Source of the DNA: a virus
Taxonomy: Duplodnaviria; Heunggongvirae; Uroviricota; Caudoviricetes
IMG/VR virus record: IMGVR_UViG_2541047680_000004
Length of the DNA stretch: 64,000 nucleotides
Direction: 5' to 3' (one strand)
Within the stretch, counting starts at the first letter, position 1. Every line of letters starts with the position of its first letter. The translations under genes were made by a program, and so were the position numbers. Shown one piece after another: positions 14,292-39,350 of this stretch. The notes under the pieces were generated by a model that saw only the letters and a list, made by a program, of their open reading frames with translations, did not search any database and was not told the origin of the DNA.

Positions 14292-14490
14292 ATGTCATTT
14301 TTCTGTGATTGTTAGCCGAGGCAACGATAACCCACCAGGTGCGCCGAAGGTAGTAAATGCCTGTTTTAATTATTCACATATCCACAGGATAGATCCTAAT
14401 AAAGAGATCCATAGATAGATCCTTGTATAGATCAAATAAGATCCCCGATCGCTGTAAGCCGCGCCACGACTGGTCTGAAGCCATGTTCAT

Positions 14491-14593
14491 GTATGCTACC
14501 AGCGGTAATTGATAGTCTGTCAACGGTTCGCCGTATGCTGCCAACTGTTTTTGGTATGCTGCCAGCGGCAAATCAAGTATGCTGTCAGCGGTT
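14491..14593 (+). repeat. iteron cluster I (4 direct copies of a 16-bp repeat, consensus RTATGCTRYCAGCGGT)
   Basis: Copies at about 14491, 14533 (degenerate), 14554 and 14578; core GCTGNCAGC is itself palindromic. Confidence 0.8.
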
Positions 14594-14612
14594 GAATGAC
14601 AAAGGTGTCCAC

Positions 14613-15707
14613 ATGTCCACAAAAAATAAAAAAGGTAAAAATAACAAAGAAGTAGAAGATAATCTCGACAACTTTGAAGAAGGTTCCCTTGAATTGTACA
14701 CAGGGGAACTTGTCCCTAATAGCAACAATACAGTCCAACCAATTGCGTTGATGCGGCTGGGGTTGTTCGTGCCCACGCTCAAGGGGACAAAATACAGCAA
14801 GCGTAACAAGCCAAATGAGATCGATGCTTCAAAGGAGCTTGTTCAGCTCGAAGTAGCCCGTTCTGAAGGTTATTCCGATATCAAGATAACCGGTCCTCGT
14901 CTCGACATGGATCATGATTTCAAAACGTGGGTGGGCGTTGTGCGTTCGCTGGCAGAATACGGCGAACCTAACGGTCGTGTCGAGTTAAGCATCACGAAAT
15001 TTGCGAAGTTTTGTGGCTATCCATCGTCACAGATCCGCAAAACACTCCGCGACCGGCTTACAAACAGTCTTTTGAAGATCATGCGTACAACTCTGTCTTT
15101 TCAGAGAACGTATGAAGAAAAGAACGTCGACGGCTCTAACAAGATCTCGCTTCTGATGGTGCACCTCATCAATAGCGTGGACTACAACGAGCAGAAAGAT
15201 ACGGTGGTGTTCTATGCAGAACCGAAGCTGGCCGAACTATATCGCTTTGACCATAAGGTTCTTTTGCAGTTAAAGGTTATCAATAAGCTACCACGCAAAG
15301 AAACAGCACAGGCTCTGTACACCTTCATCGAAAGTCTTCCAACCAAGCCTGCGCCGGTATCGCTTGCTCGATTACGTGCGCGACTCAATTTGAGTAGCAG
15401 GAATGTCAGCTCGCAGAATCAGACTATACGTAACGGCTTAAAAGCTCTCCAAGATTTGGGCTATCTCGAATACAGCGAGATTAAGCGAGGGCGGTCGATC
15501 TATATCCAGATTCACAGCCGCAATCCAAAACTCAAAGTCGCACCGCCAAAACCTGAAGACATCGAACCCAAAAAACCAGATGAGAAAGCTGGGGAAATTG
15601 ATGCCAAACAGAACATTATCAACAAGATAACCGAACTTTCGCAGAATTTGACGCCTGAAAATATCAAGATGATTGAGATCCTTTCCAATAGTCTCAAACT
15701 GCTTTGA
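14613..15707 (+). CDS. putative iteron-associated DNA-binding / replication-initiator-like protein
   Basis: Plus-strand ORF (ATG at 14613; the ORF-track start 14493 lies inside the iterons) flanked on both sides by the 16-bp direct repeats; basic N-terminus; family not confirmed. Confidence 0.4.
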   Translation: MSTKNKKGKNNKEVEDNLDNFEEGSLELYTGELVPNSNNTVQPIALMRLGLFVPTLKGTKYSKRNKPNEIDASKELVQLEVARSEGYSDIKITGPRLDMDHDFKTWVGVVRSLAEYGEPNGRVELSITKFAKFCGYPSSQIRKTLRDRLTNSLLKIMRTTLSFQRTYEEKNVDGSNKISLLMVHLINSVDYNEQKDTVVFYAEPKLAELYRFDHKVLLQLKVINKLPRKETAQALYTFIESLPTKPAPVSLARLRARLNLSSRNVSSQNQTIRNGLKALQDLGYLEYSEIKRGRSIYIQIHSRNPKLKVAPPKPEDIEPKKPDEKAGEIDAKQNIINKITELSQNLTPENIKMIEILSNSLKLL

Positions 15708-15824
15708 TATGCTGTCAGCGGTGAAATGTATGCTATCAGCGGCTATTTTTCTGAAAAGTATGCTGTGAACGGTTAAAGATATGCTACCAGCGGTATAGTG
15801 AGATAAACGTATGCTGTGAGCGGT
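15708..15824 (+). repeat. iteron cluster II (5 direct copies, 21/30-bp spacing)
   Basis: Copies at about 15708, 15728, 15758, 15779 and 15809, same orientation as cluster I. Confidence 0.8.
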
Positions 15825-15984
15825 AAATCATCTATCACCACTCAATGCTCTGGCATACCTCCCCAGTGGTTACTAACCTCGAAGAGTGCATTCCATATAG
15901 GTTTGCGCTCACTAACATTCTATTGCCGTTGCGCTGATTGCTTGTAGTGAAAGGCATTTATTGCCTGCTGCTCCCTGATAGAAC

Positions 15985-16239
15985 GTATGCTGTCAGCGGT
16001 GTTTTATTGAGGAATTTTTGTTTGGATATGCTATCAGCGGTAATTAATGGTATATGTCAGACCTTCGTATGCTGCCAGCGGTAATTTTGTTCTGGTTATA
16101 ACCATACCGGTACACATTATTCATGCAATGTCTTAAGTATGCTGTCAGCGGTAAAAAATCGAGTAAAGTATGCTGTGAGCGGTGAGATAAACTCTCGATA
16201 TGCTATCAGCGGTAATTGATTGTGTATGCTGTCAGCGGT
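15985..16239 (+). repeat. iteron cluster III (7 direct copies)
   Basis: Copies at about 15985, 16026, 16067, 16137, 16168, 16198 and 16224, spaced 26 to 70 bp. Confidence 0.8.
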
Positions 16240-16255
16240 GACGACTATGAAATAT

Positions 16256-16277
16256 GACTGCGGCACGTGCCGCAGTC
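16256..16277 (-). terminator. perfect 22-bp palindrome, terminator-like
   Basis: gactgcggcac/gtgccgcagtc; directly downstream of the minus-strand gene ending at 16287. Confidence 0.45.
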
Positions 16278-16286
16278 AGTTTGCAT

Positions 16287-16499
16287 TTAGTGTATTTTCT
16301 TTAACAGACCCCAAAGTGTTCCGGCTTTTGTAGTCAGTTTTCCTGTTTCTGGATCGTACATACGCCATTCACGCCGCTGGTGGACGATATACCCATCTTC
16401 ACGTTCCAGACGCTCAAGAATGCCAGGCTGCTTGAAACCCTTAGCACGCCAGTAGCCGCTTGTTTTCTCGATTTCCAGACCTGCCAGTGTTAATGCCAT
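16287..16499 (-). CDS. hypothetical protein
   Basis: 70-aa ORF, start coupled to the stop of the upstream gene. Confidence 0.35.
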   Translation of the reverse strand: MALTLAGLEIEKTSGYWRAKGFKQPGILERLEREDGYIVHQRREWRMYDPETGKLTTKAGTLWGLLKKIH

Positions 16500-16834
16500 T
16501 ATCCAACCTCCTTGCAGTCATCGAAAAGGTAGCTTTGCTGAGAAGCGTGAACGCCATAGAAGCCCTTGTATTTGTTGTATACGAAGTGGTCTTCTCCGAC
16601 GCCGGTTAATTTGCCATTACGGTTTGTGAGATATGGGGATGACAATACTCGATCGTCACGCACTACATAGAACTGGTCGCCGCTGTCTACGACCATCGCG
16701 CCATATGGTGCTTTTATGACGTCGGTAAAAGCGCCATTCTTAATGTCGGCTACAGACATTTCACACTGATAAACAGTGGTGTCGGCCACAACGATCGAAG
16801 AAAGGAACAACAAAGCGAATGGGATGGCCTTCAT
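16499..16834 (-). CDS. secreted hypothetical protein (signal peptide)
   Basis: N-terminal MKAIPFALLFLSSIVVA looks like a Sec signal peptide. Confidence 0.45.
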   Translation of the reverse strand: MKAIPFALLFLSSIVVADTTVYQCEMSVADIKNGAFTDVIKAPYGAMVVDSGDQFYVVRDDRVLSSPYLTNRNGKLTGVGEDHFVYNKYKGFYGVHASQQSYLFDDCKEVG

Positions 16835-26000: not shown

Positions 26001-26595
26001 TGGCGACTTTCATCGCCCGGACGTTAATCTGGTCGTAGAATGGGGTAGGGTGCGGATAAACCACACTATAGAAGTTGTCTTTTCCACCCGCTGTAATCAG
26101 TGTGCTTATGATTTTTGCAAAATCGTTGCGTTGGAACACGCTACCGATGTCGGAAGTAAGCAGGATGATGTTGCCTTTGGCATATGTAGAAACCAACTGT
26201 TCGAGCGAGAGACGCGGTACAAAGTAGAACTGTTCTCGTGTGTTGGCCGCCGTCATTAGTTCGCAGATGTCGCGATATCCTTTCTCATTTTTAATTAGAG
26301 CGGTAAACGAGTAGTTACGTCCTCGCTCTAATGATTCCATACATCCCTTAGATTCTTTAGCAAGTTTAGCCCGGTGCTCGTATGTGGGATCATCAACGAT
26401 ATTTAGTTTCACACCACAAATAACCGCCATGTCGTCACCAGCGGCACGTTGTAGTGGAATAACACTCGCAATATTCATGCTATCTGCTGAAATTACAGCG
26501 GTGTAGCCAGCTTCTCTGGCAATCTTCACCGCGTTTTCTGCTTTTAAAGCCGACTCCCCAAGTGAGAAGTCAGTTCGAACCATCAGTGCCTTCAT
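23077..26595 (-). CDS. dnaE: DNA polymerase III alpha-like replicative polymerase (DnaE family)
   Basis: N-terminal PHP-like region and the GPGRGSSAGSLVAWCIGITNVDP ... LLFERFINPER signature of DnaE-family polymerases; 1172 aa. Confidence 0.85.
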   Translation of the reverse strand: MKALMVRTDFSLGESALKAENAVKIAREAGYTAVISADSMNIASVIPLQRAAGDDMAVICGVKLNIVDDPTYEHRAKLAKESKGCMESLERGRNYSFTALIKNEKGYRDICELMTAANTREQFYFVPRLSLEQLVSTYAKGNIILLTSDIGSVFQRNDFAKIISTLITAGGKDNFYSVVYPHPTPFYDQINVRAMKVASALKIEPVAFYPAYYESIDDADIKDIAHMVTNNIKIDQPHRLRIPHQRDNAVNGRRHLLEALKAFSVRMDVPVTAAMASTTQDTIIDACTWRWHELPPALPKMADDEPATLMKLAVAGLRKRLTTKEFGYTPPASENRVYVERLKYEMDTLTRLGFCGYFLMVRDLMNHSRETGIPVGPGRGSSAGSLVAWCIGITNVDPIRHGLLFERFINPERLDLPDADLDFSQARRHEVIEYLNERYGEDYVAGIPNFTYLGAASALRDTARIYGVESADMAVSKELKNVEDDSLPLEELREQLASLDKYATKYPDAFNAACKLQSLMRGFGRHAAGMIVAGVPLTERTPVERRGDARCIAFDKRYCEAMGLIKLDVLGLATLDLLDSAKRYIKENTGEDINLDAISLEDRKVLDGFAAGYTQGVFQLESGPMRKLLKDLGGGIEPMSFKTVVATTALFRPGPIQSGMLDDYVSVAKGFMTPESLHPVLDELTAETNGVILYQEQTMNATRLLAGFTMAEADAVRSAIGKKNMEKMKSMGEKFIVQAQAGWIDVELEDGTTQRIHRAEHFKCEDGTLKTVEEALEHGAKLPINAVRVTASHPGLSEMKAKEIWTAFEKNGAYQFNKSHSVAYSLISYQSMWLKTHYPAEFFAAALTILGEDKHQGLVKDALTYGIRVLPPDVNVSSNRIEIRTLEDGSQVLYAPFSAVKGCSENGCQAIMRAREKVGGKFESLAQFEEAVEKRACNSRVRESLQKVGAFASIEPGSLPATAPERLRDQAELMGNLVIDAVKASRPFEMNPKRSAEINVLMTRMAAEMGLGDELIRPSIGIKPKIMIILDNANGNDARTGYFMENGYDDFKAKLLTAGDLRMGDLYVTGVCKKVKDKEKDYTKDEIGQFTDFIREEINLVRPTYVLTCGSRATALFNNKNKPSDLVGRKEYLPDLDVTVFYGFNPNILYFRPEEGERLEAILADVAETIKT

Positions 26596-26776
26596 GTGTT
26601 TTTACCTTTCTGGTTTTTTTTGATTTTGTCATTTGGGAAGCCTACGAACTTCCCATGCATCGAAATCGCAACTTCTTTTGCTGATTGGTGACAATCAGGC
26701 TTGTCTGGACACACCAGACAAGCCTGACCAGTTTCAGAAGCAGCGATAAGAGAGCCGAAACATCCTTTACGCACGA

Positions 26777-28107: not shown

Positions 28108-30216
28108 TCACTTTAAAATGATACGAGATAGTTCAGTAACTACAGATGAACCAAGACTATCAACGCTCGTTACCAGGGCATGATTTGAGTAAAATCTTTC
28201 CGGTGCGTCAGTCATGATGCCAATTGCCATCAAATCAATATCAGTCTGCGTTTCAATTTGCTTCGCAACTGAACGCAAATGAGCGTCAAAACCTCTCCCA
28301 ACAGCCCACGGCGCGCCATCACTCAGAACAAGCATGATCTTCCTGTCCTCCAAGCGACCGGAAAATAACGATGCAAGGCTGGCTATGCTTTCACCATCCA
28401 CGTTATTAAGAAGTGGGAATGTGTAGCCTACGCACCCCATACGTGAGCGAACTTCGCGAGAATTTACCTTTTCATTCCAATTTTTGATGATAGGTAGCAT
28501 TAAAGATTCAAAGCGAGAGAACTCATACTTGACAGCCTTAAGTTCTCCTGCCGCCATATGACTACCAAATGTAGTGAAGCCGGTGATAATGTTGGGAACA
28601 TTTATTCGATCAAGGGCATCTGCGATGGTATATGCACTTGCAAGAGCCAATTGTATCGTTATACCACTCATTGAACCTGATAAATCAATCACTTGTTGAA
28701 CACAGGCGTTAACGGCTTTAGATTCTTCTTTTTTACGAAACACGCGATCATCATTCATTGCTAATCTGTAGATACTAGAACCATGAATGCGCCCCCGACG
28801 CTGGCCCGGTATAAACTGAACTCTGTTTCTGCTTGCTATTGCTCGCTCCAGGTCTTTTGCCAGCGTCGACGAAACACCTGACGAAAGATGCTTTTCAATA
28901 TATTTGTCGAAGAGCTGGTTGCCTTCAGGAACGATGCGATAGCGGCTGATTGGATATCCTCCTAAATCAATATCGGAGAATGTTTTAATAAGCCGTTTGA
29001 TATGGGCTTCTGCCTGATCAATCGAGCCGATGAAGTCGTATGAGCGATTGTATGGCCTGTATTCGCTTTTCGAGCTTTCTGTTAACTCGCTTTTAATCGT
29101 TTCGGATAGAGCATCTTCTGTCATGCCTCCGACTTCATCTTCTATGCTATCCAGCTCCTCTAAAGCCTCTTCCAGACTCATTTTTGACGGAGTTGGAATA
29201 TCTGAAGAGCCGTCTTCTGTCGTTTTTCTTTTTTCGTGGTCAGCGATAAATGATTCTGACACCGCGTTATCAGAAGCATCAGAATCTGATACCTCTTTAT
29301 CATTTTCTGTATCATCGAATATTGTTTCTGATGATTCAGAATTATCTGAATCATCACTGTCGTTATTATCATGTTTGTGCTTACTGTGTGATTCTGATTT
29401 GATAGATTTGTGATTATCTAACGCTGAGGGTGTCTCATGATCTTCGTTGTCTTCATTGTTTTCTCCAGAGGCATCCGTCTGGTCAGCGTCTGAAGGATCG
29501 GAAGTTTTTCCCGGAGCTGACTCCTTACCTTTGCTTTCACTTTCAGTGTCTTTGAGGATCTTAGCTATGGTCGCAGCCACCTTTACACAATCCTCGGTGC
29601 AAGACATGTTACGCACGGCCACATCGATACCATGTTCTTTTAATAATGAAATTGGTTTCTCAATGACAGGCCAATATTCATCCATGAAATCTACGAACGG
29701 TGCTTGGCCATCCCAGGCTCTTACAACCGGACAGAGAAAGAAGTTTAGAAAAAGCGCGCGCTGATCTTTGCCACAATAAGCAATAGCCTCTGAAGCCTTT
29801 GGTTTAAAGACTTTTTCGATTATAAGGCGCTGAGTTGCCATCAGATTACGTCTTGTTCCGTTAAAGACCTGACCCATTTTTCGCTCGATGAACACGTCTT
29901 CTAAGGCATTCCATAGCGACCAGGAAGGAACGCGTCCTTTTTCTCTCATTTTGTTGGACACACGAATATCGGTAAACAAAATGTGAGCAACCTCATGATC
30001 GAGAAATCCGCGCACAGCATTCATCAATGCCGGTGTTGCGTTATCCGGGATTGATGGGATGTTTACGAGAATTGGCTCTCCATCATCGTTATAGCGTACA
30101 TAAGCGTCGTCCCCTCGTTCTGCAACAGGGATGTTTTTACCTGAAAGGAGAGCGACTACTCGTTTTACACTGTCACGGAAGTCCTGAACCTCTTTGATAG
30201 AACGTTTTTTAGACAT
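28108..30216 (-). CDS. CobT-like von Willebrand factor A domain protein
   Basis: Central highly acidic Ser/Asp/Glu-rich low-complexity region and C-terminal vWA domain with MIDAS motif DLSGSMSG. Confidence 0.65.
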   Translation of the reverse strand: MSKKRSIKEVQDFRDSVKRVVALLSGKNIPVAERGDDAYVRYNDDGEPILVNIPSIPDNATPALMNAVRGFLDHEVAHILFTDIRVSNKMREKGRVPSWSLWNALEDVFIERKMGQVFNGTRRNLMATQRLIIEKVFKPKASEAIAYCGKDQRALFLNFFLCPVVRAWDGQAPFVDFMDEYWPVIEKPISLLKEHGIDVAVRNMSCTEDCVKVAATIAKILKDTESESKGKESAPGKTSDPSDADQTDASGENNEDNEDHETPSALDNHKSIKSESHSKHKHDNNDSDDSDNSESSETIFDDTENDKEVSDSDASDNAVSESFIADHEKRKTTEDGSSDIPTPSKMSLEEALEELDSIEDEVGGMTEDALSETIKSELTESSKSEYRPYNRSYDFIGSIDQAEAHIKRLIKTFSDIDLGGYPISRYRIVPEGNQLFDKYIEKHLSSGVSSTLAKDLERAIASRNRVQFIPGQRRGRIHGSSIYRLAMNDDRVFRKKEESKAVNACVQQVIDLSGSMSGITIQLALASAYTIADALDRINVPNIITGFTTFGSHMAAGELKAVKYEFSRFESLMLPIIKNWNEKVNSREVRSRMGCVGYTFPLLNNVDGESIASLASLFSGRLEDRKIMLVLSDGAPWAVGRGFDAHLRSVAKQIETQTDIDLMAIGIMTDAPERFYSNHALVTSVDSLGSSVVTELSRIILK

Positions 30217-30778: not shown

Positions 30779-31165
30779 ATGTCTGATAACAAGATTGAAT
30801 TTATAGAAAGTCGCTACGCTGCTTTTATCGCAGGGTTGATTGAATCCTCACCTATGAGCCAGTCCCAGATAGCCAAAACAATTGGGTATAAAAACGCCAA
30901 CAACCTTTCTTTAATTAAAAGCGGCAAAATTCCTTTGCCTATCGATAAGGTTCGTCCGCTGGCGCTGGCACTGGGTATTGAGCCAAGTCGTCTTATGATG
31001 ATGGTGCTGGAAGAACGCCAACCCGAACTCGCAGCATTTTTATACAAAGAAGGCACTGCTCCTCTTAACGAGGACGAAAAACAGGTTCTTGCTGCATATA
31101 ACGAGCGATTCGGTAAAGAGAAAGGCGCATCACAAAAGGTTGTTGAGGCCATAAAGTCTCTATGA
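30779..31165 (+). CDS. helix-turn-helix transcriptional regulator (XRE/Cro-CI-like)
   Basis: SQSQIAKTIGYKNANNLSLIKSGK HTH motif; plus-strand gene with palindromic motif A (ggtaagcacttacc) about 40 nt upstream. Confidence 0.6.
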   Translation: MSDNKIEFIESRYAAFIAGLIESSPMSQSQIAKTIGYKNANNLSLIKSGKIPLPIDKVRPLALALGIEPSRLMMMVLEERQPELAAFLYKEGTAPLNEDEKQVLAAYNERFGKEKGASQKVVEAIKSL

Positions 31166-32263
31166 AAAATTTACACGAATAAGCTCTGTTGATAGACGAT
31201 CTCCCTTAAATTTGTGGTCAATTTCGTCTAAATCCGGTTGCTCTACGATTGATGCGATGTACGTCGAGAAACTTTCTAAGGCGTCTCGCATCTCGTCCAT
31301 ATAATCGTGCCGGTCGTAGACCCGATCTATCCCCTCAAGACTGTGGTTCATGATTTTACGTGATACCTCCTGGCTTATGCCTAATGCTGGGAAGTAACTA
31401 CGCGCAGTACGGCGCAAATCTCGGGGTGTAAATGGCTCAAGCTCCATCAGTTCTGGTCGTTCCAGAATACGACGTAATGCCTGGGCTATTGCCACTTTAG
31501 ACATAGGAAGGTCTTTCCCGATTTTTTTATTCGAAGGCACGAGCCACTGGCTGTCTTTACCGTATTCGAACAACTCTTCAATGCATGTGCGCATTAATGT
31601 GCTTAAAGGCAGCGAATGCTCACGTGCTGACTTGTTTCTCTTGCCTTGATTCCAAACCCCACGCTTAAGATTGAACTCACTTTTTTTAGCCCGCAGTACT
31701 TCGTCAGGTCGTCTTGCTGATACAAGACACAGTCTGGCCGCCCATTTTGTACCAGCGCACACATTGAAGTAGTCCCATATATTCCAGAACACCCATACCT
31801 CTGCGTCAGTCAGCTTCCGCTCGCGGGGCGTGGGCTTTGCGCCACCGGCAACTTTGTTAAGTGACATATCGTTTAACGGTGACACGTCTATCATCCCCTG
31901 GAAGGCGCACCAGCTAAGGAACTGCTTCATCAGAGAGAAAACGCGGCGGCCCATAACAATTTTGCCATCCAGTATTAGTGGGTTGACCAGTTGGTTCACC
32001 ATGAACCTATTAATGTCACTTACTTTTACATCGGCAATGTGCGGCAAAACATGTATCAAAATACAATGAACAGCGATCTCTGGCCGACGTCTGGTTATCA
32101 GCAGAGATAAGCGAGTGAATAACAGGAATGCGTCCGAGAATCTCATGTCATTGCTGACCTGGGAGATCATAACGGCCTGCATTTGAGATGCTCTTTCGAG
32201 ATACTCTATCGCCTCTTTTGAGGTGTTCTCCGCAGCGCGTGCTCTGTCAAAGCTATTTTTCAT
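31160..32263 (-). CDS. tyrosine site-specific recombinase (integrase/Cre/Xer family)
   Basis: C-terminal catalytic signature: R..PDEVLR, HSLP, PRDLRRTARSY (box II), IMNHS, VYDRHDY (nucleophile Tyr). Confidence 0.75.
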   Translation of the reverse strand: MKNSFDRARAAENTSKEAIEYLERASQMQAVMISQVSNDMRFSDAFLLFTRLSLLITRRRPEIAVHCILIHVLPHIADVKVSDINRFMVNQLVNPLILDGKIVMGRRVFSLMKQFLSWCAFQGMIDVSPLNDMSLNKVAGGAKPTPRERKLTDAEVWVFWNIWDYFNVCAGTKWAARLCLVSARRPDEVLRAKKSEFNLKRGVWNQGKRNKSAREHSLPLSTLMRTCIEELFEYGKDSQWLVPSNKKIGKDLPMSKVAIAQALRRILERPELMELEPFTPRDLRRTARSYFPALGISQEVSRKIMNHSLEGIDRVYDRHDYMDEMRDALESFSTYIASIVEQPDLDEIDHKFKGDRLSTELIRVNFS

Positions 32264-32361
32264 ATGACAATCACCGAGTTACGCCGATGCACTGTATAAG
32301 TAAACAGTATATTAGGCATAGATTCTTATAGGATCAAGAGTAAAAGTAACTCATTTTCAGC

Positions 32362-32396
32362 AATGATTCCATACATAGTAGGTATGGAATCATTTT
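32362..32396. promoter_or_regulatory. lox/dif-like candidate recombination site: 13-bp inverted arms with 7-bp spacer
   Basis: aatgattccatac-atagtag-gtatggaatcatt, perfect inverted repeat about 100 bp upstream of the tyrosine recombinase gene. Confidence 0.5.
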
Positions 32397-32473
32397 GACG
32401 TTGTTTTTTGAATTTTAAGGGAAATGGGAGTGAGTTTGGTGGGAATAAAAACGGCTCCTGTGAGCCGTTAAAA

Positions 32474-32719
32474 TCAGAGGGTGCTGACGTATGCAGCCAG
32501 TTCTGTGTATCCGCCAATCGGCTGGCCTTCGATCAGCACCTGGGGGATAGTCTCTACCGGTTTACCAACAATTTCACTTAGTTTTTCCTTGTCGATACCG
32601 GCAGTGGTGATGTCGATGTACTCATAATCACCGTAGCCATGTCCCTTTAGTTGCTTCGCTAGCTCGACCGCACGTTTGCAGTATGAGCAGTTATCTCGTC
32701 CGTAGATAGTGATCGTCAT
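32474..32719 (-). CDS. glutaredoxin / NrdH-like redoxin
   Basis: MTITIYGRDNCSYCKRA with CxxC active site near the N-terminus and thioredoxin-fold length; start taken at the internal Met with GAGG RBS. Confidence 0.7.
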   Translation of the reverse strand: MTITIYGRDNCSYCKRAVELAKQLKGHGYGDYEYIDITTAGIDKEKLSEIVGKPVETIPQVLIEGQPIGGYTELAAYVSTL

Positions 32720-32893
32720 TGTTACCTCATAGAATTGATATGCAACTTTACTCACAAAGAAGATAGGTATGTGCATACTTATCTTTGCAGTCTGCATTAT
32801 AAAGCTATTAAAGCCTCGATCAATCTATTAATTAAGGCATTGTTTGGTTAACATTACCCTAATATTTTATAGTTAGTAGAGTGAAATACATAC

Positions 32894-34156
32894 ATGCCTT
32901 TTTTAATTTTCATTATTATACTACTGCTCACCGTGATTTTTTGGGATTGGGTTGTTTTAAATGGTCAAATTGTTGGAACATTGGCTACAGCATTTGCTTT
33001 TATAGCAACAGCATGGAATGCCTACGAAGCGAGAAAAAGTGCAAAAGCAGCTTTTTCAGCCCTTCAATTAACAACAGAATCATTGTTCGAAATGCGAAAG
33101 AGTGCATTTAAACAATGGTTTGATTCCTTATTAAATCAACATGATGAGCTATGTCTTCTTGCAAAACAAATTATCGATAAACGCAAAATTAATTTAAACA
33201 GCGATGAGTTACATAGACTATATTACCCATTGGTAAAACAGCATGAGGTAATACAGTATGTGAAGCATATTATTAATATTTTTGAGTATGTGGATAGTTC
33301 ATTTTATATTGATGGGGAATGTCTAAAGGAAAAAAGAGCGTATGTGTCACAATTAATTTTCAAAATCCCACCTCAGATGAAGTTGATCATTGCTATCTTT
33401 GGATTAAAGATCGATTATTGTGAACATATTAATTCGGGAAAACTGTGTTGTTTATTAAATAAATATGATTTTTTCAATGATGAAATATTTTTTGATGATG
33501 CTTATTCAGATATGCCTTATCTGGATGCATTCATAAACCTTAGATTCAACAAAATATTCAAATCTCGAATGATAAATTATTTTGATAATATCATTAAAAG
33601 TTATTATGTTCCATCGGACGTTAAAAGGGACTGGATGTTTCGAGACCCAAAGCTCGTACCGTCGGTTCTTATGAATTATAAAACTCCTTGTTCTCCTATA
33701 ATTAATGATTACTTTGAGAAGTTGCCTTTACATGTAAGAAACTACTTTGAGGAACTACTTAAAACCGCGAATGATAGAGTTACTCATTTTGACGTTTACA
33801 TCCCACGCCTTATTGGTTGTTCAATCGTGCAACATTACGAAGATGTGCCTTCCGAAAAAAACAGGTTAAATGACAGGAATGATGTAATAGCTATGGCTGA
33901 AGATTACATCGAGAAAAGAAAATCTAATCAACTAGATTACATACTTGAAGATATATACTTCAAGAGTGACGAAGATATAATCCCAGGCCACCATTTGATT
34001 GTGGCATTTGATGACTATGAATTTAAATTATCACTCATTAAGATAAATGAGAATAAAGATAGCGATAATCTTTTAAATCGAATTTATACTGAATCCAGTA
34101 GCATGGTTAAAGAATATAAGCGCGAAATATTAAAACTGGGCGACTATGTAAAGTAA
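32894..34156 (+). CDS. AT-rich membrane-anchored hypothetical protein (candidate accessory/defence-type gene)
   Basis: 420-aa ORF on the opposite strand to its neighbours; two N-terminal hydrophobic helices; sequence visibly more AT-rich than flanking genes; own terminator downstream. Confidence 0.5.
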   Translation: MPFLIFIIILLLTVIFWDWVVLNGQIVGTLATAFAFIATAWNAYEARKSAKAAFSALQLTTESLFEMRKSAFKQWFDSLLNQHDELCLLAKQIIDKRKINLNSDELHRLYYPLVKQHEVIQYVKHIINIFEYVDSSFYIDGECLKEKRAYVSQLIFKIPPQMKLIIAIFGLKIDYCEHINSGKLCCLLNKYDFFNDEIFFDDAYSDMPYLDAFINLRFNKIFKSRMINYFDNIIKSYYVPSDVKRDWMFRDPKLVPSVLMNYKTPCSPIINDYFEKLPLHVRNYFEELLKTANDRVTHFDVYIPRLIGCSIVQHYEDVPSEKNRLNDRNDVIAMAEDYIEKRKSNQLDYILEDIYFKSDEDIIPGHHLIVAFDDYEFKLSLIKINENKDSDNLLNRIYTESSSMVKEYKREILKLGDYVK

Positions 34157-34174
34157 ATTGCACTGTTCAACAAA

Positions 34175-34200
34175 AAAGGGGCCGAAGCCCCTTTGAATTT
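34175..34200 (+). terminator. rho-independent terminator
   Basis: aaggggc-cgaa-gcccctt hairpin followed by tgaatttt. Confidence 0.55.
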
Positions 34201-34348
34201 TGCGCTGAAAAAAGTGTTGCTAGGATGTTAGCAAGCTATGGTTAAGAACGTCTGCCGTAATTATCTATCACAGCGTTGAGCGGTCTGGTTTATGTTAGCG
34301 GAGTCTTAATCGAGTTGATTAAAAGGCCAAACCGCTCAACGCTGTGTC

Positions 34349-34435
34349 TGGCGGAGAGTAATGGAATCGAACCATCATCGTTTGCACAATGGGACGGTTT
34401 TCAAGACCGCTTGAGCACCATGCTCCCTACTCTCC
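34349..34435 (-). tRNA. tRNA-Ser (anticodon UGA), long variable arm
   Basis: Manual fold of the reverse complement: acceptor ggagagt/actctcc, anticodon loop cuUGAaa, T-arm ggttcgattcc, encoded CCA; about 87 nt. Confidence 0.6.
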
Positions 34436-34755
34436 AGCTATTGTGATGGTCGGTGCTGAACTCCGACACAGGGTTGTAGCAAGCCCCGCAAAGCGCGCAC
34501 TACTGTAGTTGCGGCACATCAGCCTGTGCATTCATCACAATGGTAAGATCACTACCTTTCGACCAGTCATTGTGCACATGAACGACGATTAACCGTAATG
34601 ATATTATCGTTGTGTTGTGAAGCCAGATGCTTATCTTCTGGTTGCTTCAAAGAGCTGCACTTCCTCACAACGGTAAGAGCACTGGTCTGACTCTATCGAT
34701 TTACGGCCTTGTGGGTCAGTATCGCCGATTCGCCCAATGCTCTTACCTGTTGTGT

Positions 34756-34831
34756 TGGTGCCGGTTAACGGACTTGAACCGCTGGCCATTCGCTTACAAA
34801 ACGACTGCTCTACCAACTGAGCTAAACCGGC
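34756..34831 (-). tRNA. tRNA-Thr (anticodon UGU)
   Basis: Reverse complement gccggtttagctcagttggtagagc ... ttUGUaa ... ggttcaagtcc ... aaccggcacca; one mismatch at the top of the anticodon stem. Confidence 0.55.
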
Positions 34832-34835
34832 AATT

Positions 34836-34922
34836 TGGTGGGGAGTGATGGAGTCGAACCACCCGAGTCGCCATGACAGTAGATTTACAGTCTACACCGC
34901 TACCTCTACGGACTAACTCCCC
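34836..34922 (-). tRNA. tRNA-Tyr (anticodon GUA), long variable arm
   Basis: Reverse complement ggggagt ... actGUAaatc ... ggttcgactcc ... actccccacca. Confidence 0.6.
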
Positions 34923-34927
34923 TAAAT

Positions 34928-35002: not shown

Positions 35003-35780
35003 AATTCAGCACTGCCAGTATTTATTACTCAACAGTGCCAATCGCGACGGTTTAGTTTCTGCCAGGAAACGCACCGCTACTTGCACTTTTCGTTAGTGCC
35101 AGACGCTTTCGACTTCGCTCAATAGTAGAAGGCAAAATCTTTAAGTAGATGATGTTTCTGAGGACAGCACCTACTTTGTAATTTATACAATGTGATGTAT
35201 GGAATCATTTGTTGTGAAAACAGGCACCAATGGCAACAGTGGTTAAACCTACACAACAATCCCGTCTTCACAACGTTGAGGCCACTACTCCGATTGAATG
35301 TTTGCCCAACATGTTACATATCAACGCTCGCCGGTATCTCTGTGAATAGAACCTTAGAATTGATAAAAATGTAATGGCCTCAACGTTGTGTGCTGGCTAA
35401 CCATACCAGCCGGGCTACGTCGCCGCTTTTTAACCCAGTATAAACGACATAATTGAACAAAATGACGTAACAGGATGGGCGGTCAGTGGCTAAGAATCCG
35501 GGAGTCATATGGAGTTGAAAATATACCAACCGCCCATTCTGTTACTTCATCGGAGGGAACATGAATGTTCCCTCCTGCGTTCTGCAATCACACTCGCTCA
35601 GTGTGTCCCATTTCGGTAACGAGGCTGGAAACTGACCTCGCTGGTGTTTGGCTTATTAGGCTACTGCCAGATAGACTTCTTCGTTTGCACTTGTATTTAA
35701 GTTCAAACAGTCGCGTCTCAACGAAAACAAAGTCATCTTATACACAAAAGATAAGTAAGTAAATACTTATCATTGTATTT

Positions 35781-36071
35781 TTATTCGGTTGTGACTTTTT
35801 TGATCAAGGCCACTCTACGACTAGGTGTTCTTGTGATGGTGGCAGTGAATCGTTTCGCCTGGATAGTAATGGTTTCGTTCTCCTTAAGTTGCCCGTAGCG
35901 AGTTTCCACCAGGGTGCCAAGACGCCACAGACCATCATCGATACGTTTATGACTAGCAAATTTAATCAGCAACAGTTTTACGACTAACTGACCTACGTAA
36001 AAGGCGAATGCGACTCCGGCCGCTAAGAAATAGGTGGCCAACCACCAGTCCCAAGAAGTTAAATTGCTCAT
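35781..36071 (-). CDS. small membrane-anchored hypothetical protein
   Basis: 96-aa ORF with N-terminal hydrophobic helix. Confidence 0.35.
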   Translation of the reverse strand: MSNLTSWDWWLATYFLAAGVAFAFYVGQLVVKLLLIKFASHKRIDDGLWRLGTLVETRYGQLKENETITIQAKRFTATITRTPSRRVALIKKVTTE

Positions 36072-36591
36072 TTTCTAACCTTTGTTTCATGAACTACCCG
36101 ATACACACGCTTTCCGATACACAGTGTTTTGGTTTTAAGTTCCTGCTTAATTAAATCACGACAGATGCCGAAGCCGATAAGGAAGCCACCCATAAAAGCT
36201 AATGAGATGTATGGAATCATTTTAACACTCCTGATTCTACTAATTGCTGTAGCAATACTTTCCCTTTATCAGTTAACTGGTAGTTGGCCGAACACTTCGT
36301 TTCAGAAACGTTTGCAACCAACCCTAACCGCTCTAACTTAGCTCGCGTTTTAGGCTTCCAGTACTCAGGGAACTCCGGCCACTTACTGATTTCATGAAGC
36401 GTTTCCTTCTCCCGTTTACTTAATACGATCATCCTTAATCTCCTTCACGGTGTTGGTTATTTCTACAATGCGATAAATGCGACCTCGTCTTTCTATAACA
36501 CCGTTTTTAATGTAGTCATTAATGCAACTGGACATCACCACAATACCGATGAAAAAACCAACTGCTAAAAATGCAATCATCCAGCCGAGCA

Positions 36592-39225: not shown

Positions 39226-39350
39226 ACCAACTCCTAGCTAACAGATGAAAGTATTCTTACAAAAAACTAAGTATGTATCTACTTATCATTTTAGGCGCAA
39301 TAGTTCCCTATACGAAGATGCCGGGCTTATAGTCTGCCCGGCATTCACCA

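Follow-up and report, generated by a model that had tools for sequence, protein, structure and literature searches.

The DNA analysed here is a 64,000-nucleotide stretch of a virus of the Caudoviricetes (IMG/VR record IMGVR_UViG_2541047680_000004; the window, in what follows) that carries a tyrosine recombinase gene, int, and just upstream of it a palindrome, here called P, which a reading of the sequence alone had proposed as a lox- or dif-like core site. The window comes from an E. coli phage-plasmid of the SSU5/pSLy3 type. Identity to Escherichia phage Cyrano, which is the plasmid pLF82 of E. coli LF82, stands at 97% in this region, PhiR41_1 and CMS-2020a are likewise close, and these relatives are about 108 kb long; in related phage-plasmids the gene is annotated as an integrase. 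Lytic replication genes flank the pair on opposite sides, those for ligase, primase and helicase on one and those for CobT, CobS and the alpha subunit of DNA polymerase III (PolIII-alpha) on the other. The two features at the centre of the analysis are:

31160..32263, minus strand: tyrosine recombinase Int, 367 amino acids (aa), matching Pfam Phage_integrase (PF00589) at 4.6e-10
32362..32394, no strand assigned: putative core site P, with left arm 32362-32374, spacer 32375-32381 and right arm 32382-32394

P reads AATGATTCCATAC-ATAGTAG-GTATGGAATCATT in the window, the perfect 13+7+13 inverted repeat that had been proposed, the end given for it then, 32396, taking in two extra T beyond 32394. 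Its position beside the recombinase gene was also seen correctly, with 99 bp between P and the ATG of int. Perfect 13/7/13 palindromes number two in the window against none in 30 shuffles. The other one, at 26695-26727 between the CobS and PolIII-alpha genes, is a G+C-rich hairpin (14-bp stem, 5-nt loop) and likely a terminator or attenuator within the replication operon. P itself is predicted to form a stem-loop, with folding energies of -19.1 and -18.2 kcal/mol on the two strands (z-scores -5.5 and -6.0), and two open reading frames (ORFs), of 11 and 19 codons, lie within the palindrome.

Int carries the catalytic residues R185, K211, R281xxR284, H307 and Y316, invariant across 24 aligned homologues with identities as low as 43%, and this set, together with a two-domain clamp fold matching lambda Int, Tn1549 Int and Xer, places it in the tyrosine recombinase superfamily. 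Residues 1-57 of its AlphaFold (AF2) model (mean pLDDT 83.5) are all helical, and the best Foldseek matches of the model were lambda Int on its core site, Tn1549 Int and Xer proteins (E ~1e-6 to 1e-4), with Cre ranking 35th and lower (E of at least 1.4e-2). A phmmer search of Int against all PDB chains, Cre included, returned no match; NCBIfam and Pfam gave generic integrase matches only, and by Pfam there was no arm-binding domain (no PF13356 or other arm-domain match). The closest relatives outside the Int family are P4-type integrases carrying Arm-DNA-bind_3, at 26-34% identity. Because the nearest relatives and the fold are of the lambda/P4 kind, the arm domain is missing and the first 57 residues are helical, Int appears to be a recombinase of the lambda/P4 lineage cut down to its core-binding and catalytic parts.

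Co-variation of P with Int and its proposed role

Across about 230 related loci, int is almost always accompanied, just upstream, by an inverted pair of arms around a 7-bp spacer. A scan of viral contigs for both arms of P around any 7-base spacer returned at least 80 loci; 79 of the 80 listed hold an Int homologue, of 58.7-99.7% identity, with P 96-100 bp upstream of int or, in the 59% clade, 44-45 bp upstream, and in the remaining locus (L054) P stands 52 nt short of where the retrieved sequence ends. In a distant set of 68 loci, drawn from contigs at one genome per species, the inverted pair with its 7-bp spacer stood upstream of int in 67, the exception holding a gene fragment only. Int homologues at 44-53% identity, from genomes of Xenorhabdus, Providencia, Photorhabdus, Morganella, Hafnia, Ewingella, Rahnella, Erwinia and Pantoea, have the same layout with other arms, TGACTCCAGAC-N7-GTCTGGAGTCA.

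The arms fall into three types. GTATGGAATCAT(T) accompanies Int proteins at least 56% identical to that of the window, GTATGGAATCAC occurs in the Klebsiella clade (Int 58%), and GTCTGGAGTCA (type B) goes with Int at 44-53%. Within a clade the arms are invariant and it is the spacer that varies or flips, and a few loci carry asymmetric arm intermediates, with GTATGGAGTCA facing GTCTGG(A/C)GTCA. The spacer is 7 bp long in all loci, down to Int at 44%; its sequence goes by lineage (ATAGTAG in the window; TTAATAG, CTTACAA, TTACATA, CTAAAGA and others elsewhere), with a family-wide form TTnnTAG that is found in either orientation relative to int, and such fixed length and polarity would exceed the needs of a passive operator spacer. 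The layout is that of a simple recombinase and core site, i.e. inverted arms, a spacer within 6-8 bp, an adjoining gene and arms that co-vary with the protein. That three arm types track the Int clades at constant spacer length is the signature of a recombinase with its cognate core site, and the palindrome is very probably the target of the adjoining tyrosine recombinase. A phage repressor as the reader of P was ruled out by the same co-variation and fixed spacer length.

The pair is not confined to phages. Int and the palindrome were found on an Erwinia plasmid full of metabolic genes, on the Pantoea megaplasmids pPANA1 and pC3_1 and on Rahnella megaplasmids, replicons without phage genes or a helix-turn-helix (HTH) regulator and with nothing else in common with the window. 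The type-B site and its recombinase were likewise seen on non-phage plasmids and on 250-700 kb megaplasmids of the LPP-1 type (loci L090, L123, L129, L130 and others). Since int and P are carried by phage-plasmids and by ordinary large plasmids of Enterobacterales, the module has moved between both kinds of replicon. A repressor-operator reading is countered further by P following int onto plasmids that lack an HTH gene, and by the presence of another palindrome family at promoters.

The sequence-only reading had called for a search of the full genome and of host chromosomes for further copies of the site. The complete Cyrano genome (108,379 bp) holds a single P, and a region made up of P and the adjoining part of int was present in 214 of 5,426 complete E. 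coli genomes, at 215 places (median of one per positive genome), all of them on plasmids and none on a chromosome. Every locus examined has an intact, two-armed P. An apparent second site in NZ_CP061531 was refuted, the second match being due to an insertion of ISKox3, which in this record (NZ_CP061531.1, L238, 2713-3933) sits between the int start codon and the LexA-box promoter and uncouples int from P. What is found is the layout of multimer resolution, with a single site per replicon, an extrachromosomal location on phage-plasmids and plasmids, and an adjoining recombinase gene. The spacers of close E. coli lineages are unlike each other, which suits recombination of P with itself and argues against a fixed chromosomal attB: lineage-specific spacers are harmless if P meets only its own copy, and awkward for matching an attB in the chromosome. 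Plasmid-only occurrence, one copy, an intact P and lineage-specific spacers thus point to self-by-self recombination on the plasmid.

We infer binding, recombination and a role in resolution from what the comparisons show, namely how the site is built and conserved, how it co-varies with Int, its restriction to plasmids, and catalytic residues that are intact. P would be the core site of the adjoining Int, the two forming a self-contained pair that likely resolves plasmid multimers and possibly cyclises phage DNA, a reading to which we assign a probability of roughly 0.68. One Int monomer would bind each 13-bp arm, and strands would be exchanged across the 7-bp spacer. Int would recombine two identical copies of P and turn plasmid multimers into monomers, and it might also close terminally redundant DNA into circles once a phage has infected, in the manner of Cre/loxP in P1. 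Binding of Int at P would probably feed back on the divergent promoters that flank the site. The Cre/lox- or Xer/dif-like module of the sequence-only reading therefore survives in its role, as resolution or cyclisation fits the linkage in 67 of 68 distant loci, the clade co-variation, the fixed 7-bp spacer and the extrachromosomal occurrence, and fails in its kinship, which is neither with Cre nor with Xer/dif. A rough prior for activity of P may be taken from work on Cre-type enzymes, in which 8 of the 17 lox-like sites that had been predicted beside the gene and tested proved active (PMC10250229).

Several points weigh against resolution by Int at P. In the literature we found no binding or recombination experiment on the Int protein, no paper with the P site sequence and none describing a resolution system of the SSU5 type, and we saw neither natural dimers nor cointegrates nor any other outcome of recombination at P. 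A LexA-controlled int promoter is not expected of a housekeeping resolvase, palindromic co-variation is equally expected of a hairpin, and the resolution model leaves the solitary sites described below unexplained. The homology of the window to three relatives stops exactly at 32394-32396, the arm edge of P; this break may simply mark where a conserved module stops, and the ~30 bp that follow are semi-conserved. Because these ~30 bp are diverged yet homologous, we downgraded the break as a recombination junction and read it as the point at which the conserved backbone gives way to hypervariable cargo, not as proof of a crossover. The flipped spacers, seen between identical flanks (L002 against L038; L040 against its own clade), had to be dropped as a trace of recombination too, as a coding palindrome in the CobT gene shows the same flip, which thus looks like a general template-switch mutation of perfect palindromes. 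The CobT gene (28108-30216, minus strand) carries this perfect 12-4-12 palindrome, TGATGATTCAGA-ATTA-TCTGAATCATCA, at 29329-29356 in an acidic, D/S/E-rich coding stretch, and relatives have ATTA or TAAT at its centre, i.e. the loop inverted in place.

The flank of P beyond the arm contains one further feature:

32404..32416, plus strand: A/T block TTTTTTGAATTTT, 9 nt beyond the int-distal arm, semi-conserved

Blocks resembling AGAwTTyAAAAAAy recur 8-9 nt from the int-distal arm in an alignment of 65 distinct flanks that are otherwise unlike, and are candidates for an accessory site or a cargo promoter.

Solitary half-sites

The arm also occurs singly. Two right-arm copies had been noticed near 35194-35210 and 36206-36223, and both are real (exact 13-mers at 35197-35209 and 36209-36221, plus strand); a third, at 26330-26342 on the minus strand, had been missed. 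At up to two mismatches, the 13-mer has 6 matches in the window against 2.09 expected, a number that none of 100 shuffles reached. The three solitary copies share a longer 16-mer, GATGTATGGAATCATT, made of the 13-bp arm plus GAT, for which there are 5 matches at up to three mismatches against 0.68 expected. In Cyrano the 13-mer has five copies, all within 9.2 kb and none elsewhere in the 108 kb, which rules out a master-repressor operator network like that of P1 C1. Even between lineages with up to 41% difference in Int, the places of the solitary sites are orthologous. They are, with a relic of a fourth:

26330..26345, minus strand: S1, GATGTATGGAATCATT in the PolIII-alpha gene, codons G-C-M-E-S-L
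31645..31660, minus strand: S0 relic within int, GGGGTTTGGAATCAAG, codons G-V-W-N-Q-G, with 3 mismatches to the 13-mer
35194..35209, plus strand: S2, in a conserved non-coding stretch 190 nt upstream of tRNA-Asn
36206..36221, plus strand: S3, spanning the ATGA at which stop and start of two minus-strand ORFs overlap (a 71-aa ORF and a 50-aa membrane ORF)

S1 (TGTATGGAATCATT) is unchanged in 33 of 33 type-A loci covering this part of the gene (19 distinct sequences), with the third positions of its Cys, Glu and Ser codons invariant and adjacent codons varying freely. It is absent from 5 type-B loci, in which the peptide differs, the segment evidently being a variable loop. The frozen synonymous positions, together with a loop peptide that differs in relatives without the site, therefore place the selection on S1 at the level of DNA and rule out an explanation at the level of protein. 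S2 co-varies with the arms in the Klebsiella clade, where both read ...ATCAC. S0, decayed in the 99% E. coli clade, is, in the Klebsiella clade and the 82-90% clades (L095, L096, L159 and L197-L237), a perfect, outward-pointing 12-mer, (G/A)ATGTATGGAATCAAGG, located +722 to +726 from P over an invariant W-N-Q-G motif (codons D/N-V-W-N-Q). All solitary sites point away from P, 227 of 227 in the 77 loci with 10 kb on each side, although these represent only four independent classes, for which the chance is about 1/16. Type-B phage-plasmids and Chimaeribacter are without solitary sites.

The solitary sites had been presented as additional half-sites of a recombination module. On inspection they have no second arm, and the 7 bases next to them (..GAT) are unlike the spacer of P. 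Chimeric junctions, scored where a record covered at least 80% of the chimeric query, were found neither for an S1xS3 inversion nor for S2xS3, PxS2 or PxS3 deletions in ~190 PLSDB plasmids or 218 E. coli plasmids, and no mixed flanks occur at solitary sites among the 80 loci listed. As partners in recombination, then, the half-sites find no support in natural plasmids, in which neither a P x S nor an S x S junction was present. The observation that copies open short minus-strand ORFs beginning MIPY is literally true and mostly incidental: only that at 36068-36220 (50 aa, phrog_6302) is a conserved gene, and of the ORF at 35208 just 6 codons are left in the 85% clade. A shared function of the MIPY peptide was rejected, as S1, read in sense within polIII, codes for GCMESL and the S2 ORF is unconserved. 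Also rejected were a promoter element (no steady -10/-35 spacing beside S1-S3 across clades), dispersed centromere sites as in N15 (the sites cluster within 9.2 kb, with parA 13.9 kb off) and a replication terminus at P (the cumulative GC skew of the complete relative is monotonic, with no turn at P).

Most simply, S1-S3, and S0 in sister clades, would be extra binding sites for Int monomers under selection at the DNA level. Our leading guess at their function is a non-catalytic, polar binding of Int that affects transcription or replication on its way out of the P region. It can be hypothesized, in more specific terms, that the solitary 16-mers form a polar array of single sites on both flanks of P, within the polymerase and recombinase genes too, at which SOS-inducible Int acts without recombining, e.g. 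as an orientation-dependent block or swivel; this proposal is tentative and, in our estimate, rather improbable. The outward orientation, as geometry alone, fits the insertion of one-armed circles at P, a Ter-like trap or divergent transcription.

Known systems and competing explanations

Int/P is like Cre/loxP of P1 in having one recombinase gene beside one perfect 13-bp inverted repeat on a plasmid prophage, without accessory arm sites, and in its expected role of multimer resolution or cyclisation, Cre-type pairs including Dre/rox, Vika/vox, Panto/pox and the YR series. It differs in a spacer of 7 bp instead of 8, in the lack of a sequence match to Cre, in the LexA box of int and, compared with P1, in its conserved solitary half-sites. 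Membership of the Cre family was rejected on the absence of a phmmer match, the 7-bp spacer and a weak fold match (Foldseek E ~1e-2 for Cre versus 1e-6 for lambda Int). In dif, the XerC and XerD arms are 11 bp long and unlike each other, GGTGCGCATAA and TTATGTTAAAT, around a spacer of 6-8 bp. Inspection against the dif consensus led us to reject membership of the Xer/dif group (cer/psi-type) as well, since the arms of P are identical to each other and unlike dif, and P has its own recombinase. The lambda/P4 integrases give the best structural match and, in the P4 type, the nearest sequence relatives, and they share the 7-bp crossover, 7 bp being the crossover region of both Tn1549 Int and lambda Int. 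Unlike a lambda/P4 attP system, Int has no arm-binding domain, P is perfectly symmetric and no chromosomal attB or integrated form was found; moreover, the extra sites carry the core-arm sequence, 0.7-6 kb away, and are not of a separate arm type.

Other likenesses are of layout. In F ResD/rfsF and Tn4430 TnpI/IRS, too, the recombinase gene adjoins its site and there is one site per replicon. The IRS of Tn4430 has an inverted core plus extra single recombinase-binding motifs; its accessory motifs for TnpI are confined to ~100 bp on a single side of that core, whereas the solitary sites lie on both sides of P, kilobases off and partly in coding sequence. In Rci/sfx one conserved arm stands beside a conserved inner segment, and one-armed sites can be substrates. 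The solitary 16-mers, as an arm plus GAT, are similar, but unlike the shufflon there are no inversion isomers in natural plasmids, the sites are not clustered at a gene end, and a full palindrome is present. Asymmetric sites in two opposed groups around a resolution site recall Tus/Ter around dif, an analogy of layout only, with no similarity to the Ter core and a GC skew that does not turn at P. The link with ParA and iterons drawn in the sequence-only reading did not hold, as parA is 13.9 kb away and Tandem Repeats Finder detected no iteron array near P; Cyrano repA has no DNA match in the window. The Int/P pair is an undescribed, widespread variant of the simple tyrosine-recombinase/target kind.

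Among the alternatives, the one that fares best, unlikely as it is, takes P for a regulatory operator only, through which Int or another dimeric protein controls the divergent int and cargo promoters without recombination. The regulatory features around P are:

32290..32337, minus strand: putative int promoter with LexA box, -35 TTGATC at 32337-32332, 17 nt, -10 TAATAT at 32314-32309
32450..32469, minus strand: intrinsic terminator of the glutaredoxin unit, separating that unit from P and int
30779..31165, plus strand: HTH regulator gene, 128 aa, convergent with int with a 6-bp overlap, homologue of CYRAN_45

P sits between divergent transcription units, and the gene on its far side, CYRAN_43, is the most highly expressed gene of the Cyrano prophage in lysogens, 723-fold over background (PMC9928086). 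The int promoter scores 8/12, under the scanner threshold; its -10/start region is overlapped by the canonical LexA box TACTGTTTACTTATACAGTG at 32309-32290, the sole instance of CTGT-N8-ACAG in the window. All clades with Int at or above 82%, and likewise the Klebsiella clade, keep the hexamers and the LexA box, with variable inner bases. In Chimaeribacter and the 59% clade, 44 bp separate P from the start of int, and a TATGCT -10 lies 13 nt from the arm; the int-proximal arm thus covers the -35 position, and binding at P would repress int there. Conserved arms with a variable spacer would, moreover, suit any dimeric binder. In the clades at or above 82%, however, P is centred near -80 of the putative int promoter, a non-repressing position. 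P stays with a catalytically intact int even beside unrelated neighbours on both sides, which speaks against a purely regulatory site, as do the spacer length and polarity kept down to Int at 44% and the existence of a separate, more operator-like palindrome family at promoters. Regulation and recombination are in any case compatible, the res sites of Tn3 serving both.

That second palindrome family, AGATAAGTA-N6-TACTTATCT, occurs at 32761-32784, 35749-35772 and 39265-39288, all intergenic (3 against 0.01 expected), and its copies are good candidates for phage repressor operators. The copy at 32761-32784 adjoins a TTGATC-16-TATAAT promoter.

Less probable again is that P acts as a site of cassette exchange, comparable to the attI of an integron, at which one-armed circles integrate, S2, S3 and perhaps S1 being the scars. 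The outward orientation is exactly what this predicts, with a regenerated palindrome beside int and a solitary site at the far end of the insert; the stretch from P to S2 is hypervariable cargo, and Rci/sfx provides a precedent for one-armed substrates. Yet S1 lies in frame within an essential-looking gene and int itself would count as cargo, S1-S3 are ancient and orthologous with conserved flanks, and new cargo brings no new solitary site. The right-hand homology boundary falls in tRNA genes, ~270 bp short of S2, the 7 bases beside the solitary arms (..GAT) mismatch the spacer of P, and none of the 190-218 plasmids contained a P x S or S x S junction. An integron proper was also considered and rejected, with generic integrase matches only and no further sites within the cargo.

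We regard as very unlikely that P is an attP through which Int integrates the phage-plasmid into a chromosomal attB. The descent from P4/lambda integrases (Arm-DNA-bind_3 relatives at 26-34%, lambda Int as best fold) and the 7-bp crossover of that lineage would agree with it, and SOS control of int recalls the control of excision. Against it stand the absence of chromosomal copies from the 5,426 complete E. coli genomes and the intact two-armed P of all loci, the lack of an arm-binding domain by Pfam with an all-helical N-terminus in the model, the failure to find arm-type sites or an excisionase, and spacers that differ between close lineages of one host species. The weakest alternative, which we consider hardly credible, is a transcribed hairpin (a terminator or RNA element) with the solitary copies as antisense targets: the strong predicted stem-loop on either strand, the short T run after P on the plus strand and the position of S3 over a start codon speak for it, but a proper terminator already precedes P, which lies between divergent promoters, the stem is A+T-rich without a U tract on the gene strand, asymmetric arm intermediates break the pairing, the solitary sites lie on differing strands relative to their genes, and only three arm sequences over very deep divergence imply a constraint on sequence, not on pairing.

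Genomic setting and significance

The HTH regulator gene keeps its position in L087, L088, L091 and L159, and its Cyrano homologue, CYRAN_45, is a putative master repressor expressed in lysogens, according to the study of LF82 (PMC9928086). Since int and the putative repressor gene converge and share 6 bp, SOS-induced transcription of int could be antisense to that gene and run on into CobT, CobS and PolIII. The LexA box on int and its head-on arrangement with the repressor gene may thus be a damage sensor of these phage-plasmids.

The stretch from P to the tRNA genes and S2 is hypervariable cargo (32395-34926 in the window, 10891-16766 in L002, 3686-9666 in L087). In the window it consists of glutaredoxin, a 420-aa ORF (phrog_18168) that is absent from Cyrano, and tRNAs. 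PhiR41_1 has a fimbrial-like cluster with a GadW-like regulator in this place, Xenorhabdus relatives have a colicin/pyocin DNase with its immunity gene and toxin-antitoxin pairs, and the Klebsiella clade has an Acb2/Tad1-like anti-defence gene. In the Xenorhabdus relative L087, a CobS-like AAA_5 gene of 773 aa (14481-16802) has a LAGLIDADG_3 match, which suggests an intein or homing endonuclease insertion. Around S2, the stretch 35210-35400 up to tRNA-Asn is conserved and non-coding, with stems CACAACGTTGAGGCC... pairing 35269-35288 with 35371-35390 and a conserved block GTCTGGCACTAACGTAAAGTGCAAGT; a similar stem pair joins 34269-34288 with 34327-34346. No Rfam family matches the stretch around S2, with just tRNAs above threshold nearby, and it may be an unannotated structured RNA.

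For the largest supergroup of phage-plasmids (SSU5/pSLy3/pKpn/pMT1), elements that exist as plasmids and have never been seen integrated, the analysis supplies the 'integrase', a member of the persistent gene set, with a definite target and a role that can be put to the test. The pair represents an undescribed 7-bp-spacer family with three natural specificities, one or two bp apart per arm, and natural intermediates between them, which makes it a compact system for following the co-evolution of a recombinase with its target; it might also yield tools orthogonal to Cre, Flp and Dre. The solitary half-sites are a clean case of selection at the DNA level, with synonymous positions of a polymerase gene held invariant and all sites oriented away from the core. 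The polar array, if it exists, would link plasmid resolution with the choice between lysis and lysogeny, and for such a use of a tyrosine recombinase there is no described precedent; the LexA box on int, together with the head-on course of int into the putative repressor gene, hints at how these phage-plasmids may sense DNA damage.

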